A stretch of DNA of 26,007 nucleotides from Omnitrophica WOR_2 bacterium RIFCSPLOWO2_12_FULL_51_8 (GCA_001805895.1 MHHD01000008.1:1-26007); one strand, 5' to 3'. Shown: positions 7,132 through 14,001, counted from the stretch's first letter. Translations and numbers: made by a program. Notes: a model not told the origin generated them from the sequence alone.

Positions 7132-7207
7132 AGGGTTCGCGTCCACGACTACTCAAGGAAAAACTTACCTTACTTCTCTTCTGACGGTTCACCTAAAAAT
7201 CTGGCGG
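7132..7207. mobile_element. L element copy 4 (att-like cassette end)
   Basis: AGGGTTCGCGTCCAC-39 nt-GGTTCACCTAAAAATCTGGCGG; same 39-nt spacing as copies at 12577 and 13878. Confidence 0.85.
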
Positions 7208-7208
7208 C

Positions 7209-7361
7209 TTACTTCACCGCGTCTGGCGAAATGCGGACGGTTTTGCCGTTTTCCCATACCGCAAGCGGGCGGCCCGTCTTCTTATGCCGCTCCACAACTT
7301 GCCGCACCGCTTTTTTTAACGCCGCCTCTGCTTTATCCTGCAAAGACATCCGTTTTTTCAT
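7209..7361 (-). CDS. 50-aa basic partner of zeta-like ATPase
   Basis: MKKRMSLQDKAEAALKKAVRQVVERHKKTGRPLAVWENGKTVRISPDAVK*. ATGA overlap with the upstream gene; its stop abuts the L element. Confidence 0.78.
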   Translation of the reverse strand: MKKRMSLQDKAEAALKKAVRQVVERHKKTGRPLAVWENGKTVRISPDAVK

Positions 7362-7939
7362 TGATGCCTCGCGCTTTTTTGAACCGCCTCAAATAATTCC
7401 TTGTTAACAATCTCTCTATGCCAGTTCTTTCTTTTCGCAATCAATATAGGCCTTGCCTTTGAATTATCAAACAACATCCAAGAATCAAGCAAGGGATCAT
7501 ATAGATCGAAGAAATTATTAATTCCGCGGGTAAAACGCCTGCGCACATCTTCAGCAGGAACATAATGCCCGCCTTCTACAACCCTGTCTTTAATACGCGC
7601 GATTGCGAGTCCGGGGCTGGGGATCCAAAGAAAGAATAGATGCAGCGCGTAGCCTTTCTTTTTGAACTCCTCTAGCAAGCTTACGTAGGATTTACCGGAT
7701 AAAGTAGTTTCAAATGCAAAATCAACGCCCCGTTTCGCATATTCGTGTATTTGCTGCAATACGAGTTTGCCGGCTTTAATGGCGGCAGCGCGAGGCTCAA
7801 ACGGAGCTAATCCTTGAGCGATCAGGTCGGCATTGACAAAATTCGGACAATTCACGTAATCAGGTAAAAACATCCTGGCAAACGTCGTCTTGCCCGATCC
7901 GTTAGGTCCCGCAATAATGTAAACTGCCTTGTTATTCAT
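7358..7939 (-). CDS. Zeta-toxin-like P-loop ATPase/kinase
   Basis: IAGPNGSGKTT Walker A, VNADLIA, FAFETTLSG, RV..GGH.VP..DVRRR. Confidence 0.85.
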   Translation of the reverse strand: MNNKAVYIIAGPNGSGKTTFARMFLPDYVNCPNFVNADLIAQGLAPFEPRAAAIKAGKLVLQQIHEYAKRGVDFAFETTLSGKSYVSLLEEFKKKGYALHLFFLWIPSPGLAIARIKDRVVEGGHYVPAEDVRRRFTRGINNFFDLYDPLLDSWMLFDNSKARPILIAKRKNWHREIVNKELFEAVQKSARHQ

Positions 7940-7995
7940 AAGCGCCTTTACCGCTCAAGGAACTTTACCAGATATAATCGTAGAACTCGCCTGAG

Positions 7996-8151
7996 CGTCA
8001 ACAATGAGGGGTAGTCGTGGGGCAGGCTAACCCCCTACAACCCTTTGAGATACCGCTACTTATAAAAATTTATAAGAAACGCGGTGTGGGCTGGCAAATT
8101 TCTCTGGGCGAACCCATCAACCCTACCCTCCGCAAGAAAACGTGCCATTAA
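7996..8151. mobile_element. R element copy 3 (diverged)
   Basis: CGTCAACAATGA + GGGGTAGTCGTGG...CTTATAAAAATTTATAAG...GCGAACCCATC; colinear with copies at 9772 and 12650. Confidence 0.8.
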
Positions 8152-8164
8152 AAGCAAAGAATGA

Positions 8165-8362
8165 TTATCCAGTAGTAGATGGGATAAATCCAAATATCTT
8201 TGTCTTATCCTTTATTACGATTTTCTTTACCACAGCAACAATTTTAGTCCCATCGTTCTCAAAATATTCCAATTTATCCCCTGAAGATACTGCTCCACCG
8301 CTCACCGTCCCTTCAAAAACAATGCCCCTGCCATGAATCCCAAAAATATCCTTTACCTCCAT
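8165..8362 (-). CDS. 65-aa protein resembling EF-Tu domain II beta-barrel, possibly truncated
   Basis: EVKDIFGIHGRGIVFEGTVSGGAVSSGDKLE resembles the V.DVFSI.GRGTVVTG.V..G.V..GD.V pattern. Confidence 0.55.
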   Translation of the reverse strand: MEVKDIFGIHGRGIVFEGTVSGGAVSSGDKLEYFENDGTKIVAVVKKIVIKDKTKIFGFIPSTTG

Positions 8363-8444: not shown

Positions 8445-8455
8445 GCCGGAGAAGG

Positions 8456-9589
8456 TCATAACCATTGATCGAGATGCGTAACACAATCAACAAACGGCGC
8501 TATCTCAACGCCTCGGTCATGCCACCGGCGATGTCCGAGATAAAGCAGACAAGTCTTTGCTTCCTTAAAATCCTCGCGGAATCGCCGTAAGGCGCCGAAA
8601 TCATCGGGGCGGATCTTCTCAGCCATTTTGATTTCAAAAGCGCGCAAACCTCGTTCGCCATACAGCACAAAATCCACCTCATCCGCCGTGGCTGTCCGCC
8701 AGTAATGCAAGCGATACCCCAAATTTTTGTAGTCGTTGATAGCGCGCGCTTCCTGCAAAAAAAGGGTCTCGAGCGCCGCTCCGTGTATTTCTTCCGGGGC
8801 ATCCAGTGACCCGCGCGGGCGGATAGCCTGAAATACTCCGGTGTCGAAGTAATAAAACTTGGGGTGCGTAATGAGTCTCCGTTTGACGCGCTTGGTAAAA
8901 ACCGGCAGGCGGATGGCAATCAATAAATCCTCAAGAATGCTGAAATAGTCTTCGACGACTTTGGCCGACACGGCGCACTCGCGGGCCACGGCCGCCATAT
9001 TGAGCAATCCGCCTTGGGAAAAGCTGGCGGCTTCCAGAAAACGGCTGAAGGCGCTGAGGTTACGGGCGAATCCTTCTTGTTGGACCTCTTCGCGCAGATA
9101 GGTGGCAGCGTAACTTTTCAGATAACCTTCTGGCTTGGCGCTCGTACAGGCCAGCGGCAGACCACCGTAACGAAGGGCGCGTTTGAGATCAAAGTCCTTG
9201 CCCAATTCCAACGCTGTCAGGGGATGCATATGATACGTCAACGCACGACCTGCCAGCAAGTTAACACCGCGGCGGCGTAACTTGCGCGCGCTTGATCCGG
9301 TCAGCGCGAATTGTAAGCGCCGCGACTCAATTAAACGGTGCGCTTCATTCAGCAATTCCGGCACGCGTTGGACCTCATCTAGAACTACCCAGCCCTTGTA
9401 ATCCTGGGGAATTCTTTCTCCCAACCGTGTCGGTTCAGCCAGCAGCTCGCTATAGATCCGGTAATCCAGCAAATCAAAAAAGAGCGCTCTGGGAAATTGA
9501 TCGTGCAGCCAGGCGGTCTTGCCTACTCCGCGGGGCCCGAACAGAAAGAAGCTCTGCCGCCTAGGGGGTTTGAGCAATCGTGCATACAT
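8456..9589 (-). CDS. AAA_14 ATPase with C-terminal DUF4143-like domain
   Basis: FGPRGVGKT, LDEVQ, LTGSSAR, LAGRA, KFYYFDTG, EVDFV...FEIK. Confidence 0.88.
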   Translation of the reverse strand: MYARLLKPPRRQSFFLFGPRGVGKTAWLHDQFPRALFFDLLDYRIYSELLAEPTRLGERIPQDYKGWVVLDEVQRVPELLNEAHRLIESRRLQFALTGSSARKLRRRGVNLLAGRALTYHMHPLTALELGKDFDLKRALRYGGLPLACTSAKPEGYLKSYAATYLREEVQQEGFARNLSAFSRFLEAASFSQGGLLNMAAVARECAVSAKVVEDYFSILEDLLIAIRLPVFTKRVKRRLITHPKFYYFDTGVFQAIRPRGSLDAPEEIHGAALETLFLQEARAINDYKNLGYRLHYWRTATADEVDFVLYGERGLRAFEIKMAEKIRPDDFGALRRFREDFKEAKTCLLYLGHRRWHDRGVEIAPFVDCVTHLDQWL

Positions 9590-9771
9590 AAGTCTTTTTT
9601 ATCATAAAAAAATGACTTGTCAAGTAATTTTTACATAATCTATCAAAGGCATTCTTTTCTTCTATTGCCCCATTTTTAACAAACTACTGCATTAATTTTG
9701 ACTGCTGTCAAATTTACTCGCAAGTAAATTTCCCTGTCCACGCAACGCCCCACGCCCTCTACTTGGCCACT

Positions 9772-9960
9772 CGTCAACAATGACGGGTAGTCGTGGACGA
9801 AAGTCGAACCCTGCAACCCATTGAGATACCGTTACTTATAAAAATTCATAAGAAACATGGTGTGGGCTGGCTAATCGCCCTAGACGAACCCATCTTCAAT
9901 AAACCTACAAAAACCAAAGAACCGACAAACCCAGAGCCATACTGCGACTATGTTATTTAG
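9772..9960. mobile_element. R element copy 2
   Basis: CGTCAACAATGA + CGGGTAGTCGTGGACG-n5-CGAACCCT...; 177 nt colinear without gaps with 12650-12826. Confidence 0.85.
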
Positions 9961-11022: not shown

Positions 11023-12477
11023 TCAATATATTTCGAGGTTGCCGACCCAACTCGAAAGAATCTTCCACAAAACAGTCACGGCAAAATAAACCTCTTTATC
11101 CTTATCCTTCAAGTCTTCAATCTCGGCGACAAGCTTCTCCTGCTTCTGCGTGCCAACAACCCAGGCAACCCACTTCCTCGCCCCATCATCAGCCATGACA
11201 GAAAGTAAATCCTTGACAGAGAAATTTCCGCTCTTGCTTAAAGCCCATGAAATACCGGCTCTCACATCCTCGCTCCCCTTCGGAAAATACTTGATGATTT
11301 CCTTGCCGAACAAGCCGGAAAGCCTAAACAAAGCACGGGCAGACTCAGACCGCACACCCAAATCAATATCATCAAAGACAGAAACCAAGGCGTCAAGCGC
11401 AACCTTGTTCTTAAGCTCGCCCAAAGCCCAGGCAGCACCAGCCCTGATCTCTGAATGCTGAGCCTTATCAAGCAAGACTTCGATTAGAAGTCTGCATGAG
11501 ACATCGCTACAAATTTCTCCAAGAATAATCACACACTCCAAACGATTCTCCAAATATTCATCAGCCAAAACAGACTTAAAGAAATCTACGCTGTCACTAA
11601 AGCCCATCTTCAAAAGGCTAGCCGCAGCCTCCAAACGGATATATATGTGGTCTCTTGCGTCGCCAGTCTTCTTGACCAGGGCTCCATGAATATCCGCCCC
11701 CTTAAAAAACGACAACGCTTTTGCTGCGCCGTAGCGATCACTCAAAGAAGCGCTCCTAATCATCCTAACGTAATCCCTGGCTTCCATGCCCTTACCACAG
11801 TCAAAACTCGTCGAAACAGGAACGACGCTTGCCAAAATCTGATCTTCAACAAAAACGTCCCCAGCCTTCACAAGAGGCTTAAGTCTGATACCCTTCTTCT
11901 CCAAGGCAAGACTGATAAGCCTGCCATCACCTCTACGCTTTAATTTAAGCCGTTCCTTGCCAACCTCCACGACTTCGCCTGCGCAACTGGCAACTGCGCT
12001 AGGCCAGGTAATCCTTGCCTCAAAGCCCTCCTCAGTGCCCTTCGGTTTCTCCCAAAAAACCTTCTTGTCAACAACAGCAGCCCTCAAAGGCTTAGCCGAC
12101 ACATACTGAACAAACCCGGAAGCAGCCCAATCAACAGGCTCAGTCCCAATCTTGCTACACTTCACAAAAGCAACCATGTCGCCATCATCCAAACCAAAAT
12201 CCCATCCTCGCTCAGGACTGACAACGCTATGCGACATCGTCACAAGCAGCTTAGTCTTAGCCCTCGACTCAACCCTCCTGCCACAGCCAACGCATAAGAC
12301 ATCAGGAACTCGCACCCTCTTAATTTTGATTTCCTTCCAAATCTTAAAGCTCATACTGCCACGTTCAAGCTCAACAGGACGATGCCCAAGCCGCTTCAAA
12401 TCCTCAAAAACCCTCCTCGTGCCAGTAGCGCCAATAGAAATCTTTTCTAAAAAACTCACATCCGTCTTAAAAGCCAT
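11023..12477 (-). CDS. Putative restriction endonuclease: N-terminal PD-(D/E)xK-like region plus C-terminal HEAT repeats
   Basis: VPDVLC...VESRAK in the N terminus; repeated helical units (RYGAAKAL, RLEAAASL, RAGAAWALGEL, RSESARAL); directly upstream of the methylase. Confidence 0.6.
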   Translation of the reverse strand: MAFKTDVSFLEKISIGATGTRRVFEDLKRLGHRPVELERGSMSFKIWKEIKIKRVRVPDVLCVGCGRRVESRAKTKLLVTMSHSVVSPERGWDFGLDDGDMVAFVKCSKIGTEPVDWAASGFVQYVSAKPLRAAVVDKKVFWEKPKGTEEGFEARITWPSAVASCAGEVVEVGKERLKLKRRGDGRLISLALEKKGIRLKPLVKAGDVFVEDQILASVVPVSTSFDCGKGMEARDYVRMIRSASLSDRYGAAKALSFFKGADIHGALVKKTGDARDHIYIRLEAAASLLKMGFSDSVDFFKSVLADEYLENRLECVIILGEICSDVSCRLLIEVLLDKAQHSEIRAGAAWALGELKNKVALDALVSVFDDIDLGVRSESARALFRLSGLFGKEIIKYFPKGSEDVRAGISWALSKSGNFSVKDLLSVMADDGARKWVAWVVGTQKQEKLVAEIEDLKDKDKEVYFAVTVLWKILSSWVGNLEIY

Positions 12478-12576
12478 AACAAAAAAATCCTTTCTCTAAA
12501 AAGAAACGATGACCTTTTCAAAAAGTTTTCGTACTCAAGTTTTTATTTACACTCATAAGCATCTCTTTTCCAGCTC

Positions 12577-12826
12577 AGGGTTCGCGTCCACAATTACTGT
12601 GCGCAAAATTGCTTTTGCTTCTCGACGGATGGTTCACCTAAAAATCTGGCGGGTAGTCGTGGACGGTAGGCGAACCCTACAACCCCTTGAAATACCGTTA
12701 CTTATAAAAATTTATAAGAAACGCGGTATGGGTTGGCTCATCGCCCTAGACGAACCCATCTTCAATAAACCTGAAAAACCTAAAGAACCAAAACAGTTAG
12801 AGCCTAACTATAATTATGCCATCTAA
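12577..12826. mobile_element. Complete L|R junction (attP-like composite site)
   Basis: L copy 2 (12577-12652) fused to R copy 1 (12653-12826); GGTTCACCT (12631) and AGGCGAACC (12668) are inverted about the GT at 12653-12654. Confidence 0.85.
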
Positions 12827-12838
12827 CAGCATTTTGCC

Positions 12839-13279
12839 TTAAAAAAGTTCCTTAGAATTAACGTTATAATTGATCATCAGCCAAGAATCGCCATACTTCT
12901 TCAAAACAAAAGAATCTGTAGATTCGCCTTTTTCATGGATTACCGTATACTGAACGCTAAAATATACTCCATCTGGGGCATAGTTAAGTCGCCAAGCGCC
13001 CTTCTTCCGCTCCTTAGCAATACCTAATTTCCCCCAAACGCCGTTCATTATCTTATCAAAACTTTCGCGGGGGCCACTCTTTTTGAATTTTTCATCAGCC
13101 ATCGAATCAAACATGTAGCCAAAATCTTGTTTATTGTAATGGTCATAGAAGCTTGCAATGAATTTTTCAACAGATGGCGTGAATTTACTGGCATTTAAAA
13201 AGGCGAAGCCACCAAAAACAACAAATAAAATTATTATTACCAAAAACGTAATTCCTAGACCAATAAAGAATTTCTTCAT
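12839..13279 (-). CDS. Membrane-anchored hypothetical protein (146 aa)
   Basis: N-terminal hydrophobic helix, then a soluble alpha/beta domain ending in SFVLKKYGDSWLMINYNV; GGAGG RBS. Confidence 0.75.
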   Translation of the reverse strand: MKKFFIGLGITFLVIIILFVVFGGFAFLNASKFTPSVEKFIASFYDHYNKQDFGYMFDSMADEKFKKSGPRESFDKIMNGVWGKLGIAKERKKGAWRLNYAPDGVYFSVQYTVIHEKGESTDSFVLKKYGDSWLMINYNVNSKELF

Positions 13280-13877: not shown

Positions 13878-13955
13878 AGGGTTCGCGTCCACGACAACCT
13901 AAGCAAAAAACGCAAGCGGCTGTCGTCGGACGGTTCACCTCAAAAACTGGCGGGT
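13878..13955. mobile_element. L element copy 1, joined to a tRNA-like half-site
   Basis: AGGGTTCGCGTCCAC-39 nt-GGTTCACCTCAAAAACTGGCGGGT. Confidence 0.85.
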
Positions 13956-14001
13956 TATTAGGGATTCGAACCCTCTCGCCTGCGCCAAAGATCTTTTCAA
14001 A
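13948..14001 (-). pseudogene. tRNA-like 3' fragment (T arm, acceptor strand, CCA) directly downstream of tRNA-Leu
   Basis: Minus strand: TTTGAAA-AGATC-14 nt-GAGGGTTCGAATCCCTA-ATAACCC-G-CCA; no matching 5' half. Confidence 0.55.

Follow-up and report, generated by a model that had tools for sequence, protein, structure and literature searches.

An attP-type junction between recombinase-less cassettes at a tRNA-Ser 3' end, probably belonging with serine integrases that have an att site inside their own gene

Large serine recombinases (LSRs) such as the A118/LI, phiC31 and Bxb1 integrases combine Resolvase, Recombinase and zinc-ribbon domains and act on short, imperfectly symmetric attachment (att) sites (PMC3783163). 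Here we analyse a repeated unit in a 26,007-nucleotide stretch of DNA (the window; MHHD01000008.1:1-26007) from Omnitrophica WOR_2 bacterium RIFCSPLOWO2_12_FULL_51_8, in which a left arm (L, from position 12577) runs directly into a right arm (R, from 12653), and which we relate to an enzyme of this kind. The resemblance extends to a putative, very short core and to an outer motif that is 5 bp closer to the centre in bacterial half-sites than in those of the element (13 versus 18 nt here). In contrast to the described sites, the crossover would lie ~57-59 codons inside the integrase open reading frame (ORF), such that integration exchanges the C-terminal tail of the enzyme, several tRNA-Ser isoacceptor genes are targeted at their extreme 3' end, and the arm found in satellite cassettes carries a conserved extra inverted attB-type half-site ~54 bp away.

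Other described systems share parts of this organization. Composite islands of the staphylococcal cassette chromosome (SCC), including ccr-less pseudo-SCC elements (bioRxiv 10.1101/336396; PMC3900703), are also stacked in tandem at a conserved gene 3' end, with cassettes that do or do not encode their own large serine recombinase and att-derived repeats between them. However the SCC target is rlmH and not tRNA-Ser, the cassettes here are far smaller (0.5-3 kb) and each keeps a 180-nt integrase-coding R and a structured 76-nt L, and the phylum is a different, uncultured one. The tycheposons of Prochlorococcus (bioRxiv 10.1101/2020.12.28.424599) likewise use tRNA targets, where repeated integration pushes older elements inward, and show degenerate remnants, tandem junctions and a cargo of defence and niche genes, but they are bounded by partial tRNA repeats instead of L and R arms; a tyrosine recombinase is found in 910 of 937 of them and LSRs in the rest. 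The suicidal archaeal tyrosine integrases of the Sulfolobus spindle-shaped virus (SSV) type have their att site within the integrase ORF, and integration alters the gene, as we propose here, whereas the SSV integrases are split and inactivated and the serine enzyme would keep its catalytic and DNA-binding domains and swap only its last ~57-59 residues. A review gives recombinases disrupting the gene that encodes them as known only in Archaea, where they are tyrosine enzymes (PMC8371274). Finally, integron arrays (attC x attI, IntI) also consist of short, co-oriented, recombinase-less cassettes with structured sites between them. Here, in contrast, no IntI was found, the junction does not coincide with a hairpin base, a serine recombinase is linked to the site, and the sites are conserved in sequence and not in structure only.

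Our principal finding is that positions 12577-12760 are an attP-type L|R junction between two neighbouring recombinase-less cassettes, stacked in tandem at a tRNA-Ser 3' end. We further propose, with a probability of roughly 0.72, that these cassettes belong with a clade of LSRs that carry their att site within the 3' end of the gene encoding them, so that L|R is the satellite form of the attP-type junction and R consists of codons for the recombinase tail. The parts of the junction are as follows.

12577..12597, plus strand: L-start, the R half-site inverted and spaced as in attB; AGGGTTCG runs straight into the 13-nt inner motif with no 5-nt spacer.
12598..12628, plus strand: variable middle of L, which always supplies the hairpin partner arm or arms and differs in sequence between copies.
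12629..12652, plus strand: L-right, the putative P' half-site, A(T/G)GGTTCA, 14 nt and GG; L copies conserve GGTTCAC...CTGGCGG.
12650..12652, no strand: common core C-GG, the inferred crossover and the only bases common to all junction types.
12653..12678, plus strand: R-start, the putative P-type half-site, made up of an inner motif of 13 nt, a variable spacer of 5 nt and CGAACCCT.
12653..12826, plus strand: coding sequence of the C-terminal LSR tail, 57 codons from the junction with stop TAA at 12824-12826.

R is coding DNA. Among 115 distinct R copies the tail frame is open for at least 55 codons in 78, compared to between 0 and 4 copies for each of the other five frames, and 50 copies share a stop at codon 57. 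Minority bases fall at the three codon positions in the ratio 279/195/556 and are thus concentrated at the third, a signature of purifying selection on the protein. Read on the plus strand from the junction, the peptide is VVVD(G/E)xRTLQP.EI.LLIKIHRKR.MG.LI.L.EP... up to the shared stop; 12653..12826 can alternatively be read as a 55-codon ORF starting at GTG 12659. We considered an independent protein family as the source of this peptide, but found no match in Pfam or NCBIfam, and the tail was instead found fused to an LSR. A profile search with the R peptide was dominated by a family of ~145-residue helix-turn-helix proteins and said nothing on LSRs. These conserved but uncharacterised proteins, which have a C-terminal helix-turn-helix (HTH; locus L113:1204-1641, minus strand, with homologues at loci L114-L121), belong to no Pfam family and have 51 relatives at E <1e-10 in the representative library; their N-terminus (MD..R..EI.ILVKMYRRRGKG.SISL.DP) weakly resembles the R-encoded tail, with 43% identity.

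The link to a recombinase comes from metagenomes. Searches around ~190 array loci found no recombinase, except on four metagenome contigs. One of these (L296:1272-3131) has an ORF of 620 residues with Resolvase (PF00239), Recombinase (PF07508) and Zn_ribbon_recom (PF13408) domains, which crosses the junction as ...NWYHWR|VVVDGRRT... and terminates inside R. Behind this fusion (L296:3213-10244) lie SMODS and ThiF/E1-like genes resembling a cyclic-oligonucleotide-based antiphage signalling system (CBASS), together with DUF6602 and a protein with HTH_17 and zinc-ribbon domains. Among 5.8 billion proteins, a region-restricted search returned two further LSRs with the same tail (P0002 and P0003), one of which has a different body upstream of the junction; on both contigs the LSR is followed by convergent cargo genes. 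An enzyme with the three domains is thus linked to the site through L296, P0002 and P0003; in the window's own assembly, at 63% completeness, no cognate LSR was found.

A second state of the same gene is found in related genomes. Searching the order with the L296 protein gave matches in 20 genomes, ~12 of them near-full-length homologues with 66-83% identity, and the matches stop at ~residue 562, exactly at the junction. Of 12 LSR loci that were fetched, 8 have an ORF that continues into the complement of tRNA-Ser, and a ninth, truncated where its contig ends, likewise has a tail of antisense tRNA (...WR|RGWDSNPG...*). These tRNA-Ser-ending homologues, from at least 8 genomes, are 71-83% identical to L296 over residues 1 to ~562. 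One LSR gene therefore exists in two states, body|R (attP-type) and body|antisense tRNA-Ser (attL-type). We know of no serine integrase described so far with an att site within its own gene.

More widely, LSRs seem to be the predominant integrases in this lineage: PF07508, the Recombinase domain, is found in 125 of 234 genomes of the order, often in multiple copies, versus 2 of 14 control genomes, and the tyrosine recombinases (PF00589) of six genomes checked are Xer-sized only, with 1-3 per genome. The LSRs encoded in this genome itself, on contigs C18 and C75, were rejected as cognate enzymes, being located at tRNA-Leu and tRNA-Gln and without a homologue near the arrays. The first (C18:50-1300; locus L040) lies 76 nt from tRNA-Leu(cag), and the second (C75:971-2563; locus L041) overlaps the complement of tRNA-Gln(ctg) by 45 nt; both resemble similarly designed elements that have integrated at other tRNAs. 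The habit recurs in other LSRs of the phylum, three of which, from metagenomes, overlap tRNA-Asn.

The distribution of the arms identifies the target. The 261-nt L|R unit occurs in 38 of 234 genomes of the order, at 71-91% identity, in 62 stretches of species-representative genomes (mostly Omnitrophota) and in 97 metagenome stretches. In every locus that can be traced into chromosomal DNA the right end of L adjoins a tRNA-Ser gene (gga, gct, tga or cga) at its 3' end, and among 38 full L copies 15 adjoin an intact tRNA-Ser and 12 others run into R. On its far side R leads into terminator-like hairpins; one relative has at this place the tRNA-Val that also closes the window's island. Together these contexts indicate that the cassettes are integrated at the tRNA-Ser 3' end, singly or in tandem. 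Viral contigs gave zero R matches and 18 matches to the L-start 15-mer, all of them chance.

The geometry of the site fits an LSR as well. The first CGAACCC stands at a constant offset in 112 of 115 R copies, and the 5-nt spacer of R-start, despite 23 sequence variants, is constant in length. This gives GG-18-CGAACCC in R, compared to GG-13-CGAACCC in both the T arm of tRNA-Ser and L-start. In large serine integrases the motif bound by the zinc-ribbon domain (ZD) lies 5 bp farther from the centre in attP than in attB (LI integrase; PMC3783163), and the difference between 18 and 13 nt matches this shift. On the other side of the core, L-right reads AGGGTTCA, 14 nt and GG, and the autonomous LSR gene has AAGGTTCG, 16 nt and GG at the equivalent place.

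The initial annotation had placed the crossover at the GT that follows the core in R. A comparison of junctions moves it. In 45 of 47 genome copies a C precedes GGGTAG, the upstream bases being TGG in 28 and others in 19, and a typical tRNA-Ser has GG-AG where R has GG-GT. Across L|R, LSR|R, flank|R, L|tRNA-Ser and LSR|tRNA-Ser junctions only C-GG is common to all, and we therefore infer that the crossover lies there (12650-12652) and not at GT. The junctions of R with a further class of inserts, X|R, are symmetric about the GG of the core. These X inserts (window 7209-8010 and ~8446-9786; L064:4555-4610) end in an inverted copy of the P-type R half-site, laid out as a AGGGTTCG-like motif, 5 nt and CGTCAACAATGAC adjoining R, which makes X|R a nearly symmetric site centred on GG; in the window's X ends the outer motif of the inverted half-site is degenerate.

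On the R side, three motifs had been read as accessory sites, forming with L-start a tripartite synaptic site arranged symmetrically at 56-57 bp either side of the crossover.

12680..12692, minus strand: IHF-like match with one mismatch, TTTCAAGGGGTTG; codons Q-P-L-E-I of the tail ORF.
12696..12723, no strand: 28-bp palindrome; codons (P)LLIKIYKKR of the tail ORF, specific to this lineage.
12751..12757, plus strand: second CGAACCC; codons D-E-P of the tail ORF.

All three motifs are present where they had been described. The palindrome is self-complementary at 24 of 28 positions and occurs in copies R1 and R2 of the window too. In other R copies however it mostly scores 6-14 of 28, and only 5 of 115 reach at least 20; at its position other genomes read ...TTCATCGCAAACG... 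(H-R-K-R), giving the peptide LLIKIHRKR from DNA that is not palindromic. The match to the integration host factor (IHF) pattern is at chance level, as 39 such sequences with one mismatch are found in the window versus 32 +/- 6 expected, and its retention in 76 of 115 R copies is what would be expected for conserved coding sequence. The second CGAACCC, 80 nt past the first at 12671, is kept in only 53 of 115 copies and is replaced by GAGAACCG (G-E-P) in the subfamily of tails fused to LSRs. The constant spacing of these motifs is explained by the reading frame, which enforces it. On this comparison the palindrome, the IHF-like sequence and the second CGAACCC are tail codons, to judge from their sequence, and not binding sites. 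The symmetry is itself only approximate and depends on the choice of GT: counted from C-GG, the left feature is ~54 bp away and the right one ~58 bp.

A synapse assembled, as in res or attP intasomes, by accessory proteins at sites ~+/-56 bp (the short inverted half-site on the left, a palindrome binding a dimer and an IHF bend on the right), which could also drive inversion or capture of cargo, is thus improbable. It does have in its favour that none of the motifs is missing from the window's three R and four L copies, that the spacing of L-start is conserved in other genomes and that the IHF-like sequence persists in those 76 copies. Against this, the R-side motifs lie inside a conserved LSR-tail ORF, the palindrome is not conserved, and serine integrases use sites of ~40-50 bp with integrase alone (PMC3783163; PMC12286644). 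Among the four motifs only L-start is conserved across copies, at a fixed distance, and the motifs in R are not conserved as sites; a tripartite, symmetric arrangement therefore does not stand.

The proposal that cargo is inverted or captured through an AC at the end of the inverted site, complementary to GT, fares no better. The AC is AG (AATTAG) in 21 of 38 L copies, and the crossover core is C-GG, so the idea loses its basis; furthermore, the 2 nt beyond the inverted site (TG, TC, CT...) never match GG or CC. In Logan contigs from four public groundwater or soil runs at ~5x depth we saw no inverted, skipped or strand-switching joints, a test of low power. The summed depth over R (12373-13106 examined) is 2-4x that of the flanks in the four runs, and contigs break or branch at 12647-12676, as expected at a repeat boundary. 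In the same communities R also adjoins other sequences, as is evident from loose ends at 12647 and 12791.

The 11-6-11 palindrome could also be viewed as a dif-like site, with the cassettes mobilised by Xer, since its 11+6+11 bp architecture fits and the only tyrosine recombinases found in these genomes are Xer-like. We regard this as extremely unlikely. The similarity between copies extends past the palindrome on both sides, the breakpoints lie 56-58 bp away, no junction breaks inside the palindrome in 115 copies, and the palindrome is coding sequence that is absent from most R copies.

What holds up from the initial annotation is the inverted half-site at the start of L. It had been described as an R half-site lacking exactly 5 bp, and indeed L1 is the reverse complement of the R3 half-site at 21 of 21 positions after removal of the 5 nt GTAGG, with 2-3 mismatches in L2-L4; the window's L copies begin AGGGTTCG and CGTCCAC.... 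The element (searched as AGGGTTCGCGTCCAC with at most 2 mismatches) recurs in related genomes and metagenomes, where its distance is fixed too. It is nearly invariant across 27 aligned L copies, and from its first base to the end of TGGCGG 38 copies measure 76 nt in 27 cases, 75 nt in 7 and 74, 77 or 81 nt in the remaining 4.

In every L copy L-start is, on the cargo strand, the 3' arm of hairpins. These come in two architectures. Type A has two hairpins, ACCCTCC/GGAGGGT (with variants CCCTTC/GAAGGG and CATCC/GGATG) and CGTCCACA/TGTGGACG, and type B has one long stem, GTCCGACGACAAC/GTTGTCGTGGAC; the copy at 12577, of a degenerate type, has GCAAAA/TTTTGC as an inner stem. Read on the cargo strand, L follows either the tRNA-Ser gene or the previous R and comes just upstream of the first cargo gene, and a Shine-Dalgarno-like sequence with a start codon is found within 36 nt in 21 of 38 copies. 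In our view L-start most likely acts in a structured leader or a tRNA trailer on the cargo strand. Because its sequence is fixed, and not just its pairing, it may also bind one integrase subunit in the attB mode.

This second role could be taken further. As an extra attB-configured integrase half-site, L-start could tune synapsis or directionality of the satellites, which encode neither an integrase nor a directionality factor themselves: an integrase subunit sitting there would make its coiled-coil available to the one on the adjacent P' half-site. We regard this as possible but less likely than not, and it is compatible with the hairpin or leader reading. The identity at 21 of 21 positions in L1 with exactly the 5-nt spacer removed speaks for it, as do an L-start that stays nearly invariant while its hairpin partner varies, the fixed distance from the core, and a spacing that fits the ZD-motif shift; contacts between P-type and B-type coiled-coils underlie directionality in serine integrases (PMC3783163). 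However it is a single half-site with no partner half, no comparable accessory site is known for serine integrases, and the autonomous attP (LSR|R) has no inverted equivalent, with just a direct CGAACCCT ~55 nt upstream in coding sequence. Hairpin pairing also accounts for the inner motif.

The complementarity of L-start and R-start might further suggest an integron-like folded site, in which the two pair in single-stranded DNA as a hairpin of ~100 nt with 5 extrahelical nucleotides, like those of attC, for a tyrosine recombinase. The 21-bp complementarity with its 5-nt bulge is real, the region folds better than shuffled sequence (z = -3.5), and the cassettes are promoter-poor, co-oriented and without a recombinase. 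Nevertheless we consider this very improbable. No IntI-like gene was found, just the 1-3 Xer-like tyrosine recombinases per genome, and the junction lies between L-right and R-start and not at the hairpin base. L-start and R-start show no covariation, R being constant while L varies; in single insertions the arms are kilobases apart and L-start pairs within L; and it is an LSR that is physically fused to R.

We therefore return to an LSR with an att site inside its own gene, and to how such a system might work. In the attP state the LSR ORF runs through ...W-R | V-V-V-D... across C-GG and ends ~57-59 codons on, in R, the first 26 bp of which would double as a P-type half-site (inner motif, 5-nt spacer and CGAACCCT). 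After integration the ORF would run into the complement of tRNA-Ser, and R would remain at the far end of the element. The window's cassettes consist of R, cargo on the tRNA strand and a 76-nt L arm in place of the LSR gene. L carries the putative P' half-site beside the core and, at its outer end, the inverted spacer-less half-site in the attB geometry that is seen in tRNA-Ser. Lacking an LSR gene, the cassettes would have to depend on an LSR supplied in trans. Arrays and a cognate LSR occur together in only ~4-5 of 234 genomes, a count that is not informative.

A number of observations weigh against this account. Queried with L296, the window's own assembly, which is 63% complete, gave no cognate LSR, and no recombinase was found within 8-20 kb of most arrays. 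Near integrated LSR copies no R end was found within ~17 kb, and no complete autonomous element could be delimited. L296 itself, which has no terminal overlap, could represent a tandem junction and not an excised circle. Fusion to an LSR has so far never been seen for the satellite-type tail subfamily (...GWLIALDEPIF...YDYVI), and purifying selection on this subfamily might instead reflect a free 55-residue peptide. Many of the cassettes may be immobile relics rather than elements mobilised in trans. Moreover, attP x attB recombination does not directly yield tandem attP-type junctions, which call for a further step; they might arise by integration of a co-integrate circle, or by attR x attL recombination between elements at neighbouring tRNA-Ser genes. 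As to the folding of L, the strand difference in mean minimum free energy is small (-22.5 kcal/mol for the cargo strand versus -20.5 for the other), and RNAalifold found no single consensus fold for 27 L copies of mixed architecture, which we attribute to the mixing of the two architectures.

A bolder version of the LSR reading is that the swap of the tail serves as a sensor of element state that biases directionality, with satellites exploiting a helper through their tail-coding R and the extra half-site. In this reading R is possibly expressed as a free 55-residue peptide from GTG 12659. We think such a sensor possible and rather doubtful.

Within the window, which is contig C8 of a 0.94-Mb assembly, the repeats lie in an island of ~5.6-16.3 kb flanked by housekeeping genes, with all island genes on the minus strand and with tRNA-Val, tRNA-Leu and tRNA-Cys. 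L starts at 7132, 8385, 12577 and 13878 and R at ~8008, 9784 and 12653, so that 12577-12825 is the sole contiguous L+R in the window; no further L or R repeats were found elsewhere in the assembly, and they are confined to this contig. Rfam and ARAGORN searches of the window matched L and R to no known RNA and found no tRNAs beyond these three. The remaining repeats and the target are listed below.

7132..7207, plus strand: L1, followed by an X-type insert (zeta-toxin pair) and not by R.
8008..8183, plus strand: R1, tail ORF truncated; preceded by the X1 end (...CGTCAACAATGAG).
9784..9959, plus strand: R2, tail ORF intact; preceded by the X2 end (...CGTCAACAATGAC).
13878..13953, plus strand: L4, adjoining the tRNA-Ser remnant in an attL-type junction.
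13946..13985, minus strand: tRNA-Ser-like 3' fragment with T arm, acceptor strand and GCCA, at which the array is integrated.

The tRNA-Ser fragment lies 14 nt downstream of tRNA-Leu(taa), and no intact tRNA-Ser gene was found anywhere in the assembly at its 63% completeness. Cargo genes in the window encode DUF4143 ATPases, nucleotidyltransferases, a zeta-toxin pair and an N4/N6 methylase along with its HEAT-repeat partner; in these cassettes as in L296 the cargo is of the defence type throughout.

Taken as originally proposed, the accessory sites would mislead, three of the four being codons. What remains is one concrete element that calls for an explanation, a nearly invariant half-site that is inverted, has attB spacing and forms part of a hairpin. 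If the tail swap does act as a sensor, this would be an integron-like cassette system built on a serine recombinase. Serine integrases are tools of genome engineering, in which the control of directionality is an active question, and a natural tail swap together with an extra half-site bears on it. For the Omnitrophota, a widespread family of recombinase-less cassettes is now tied to a specific serine integrase that targets tRNA-Ser.

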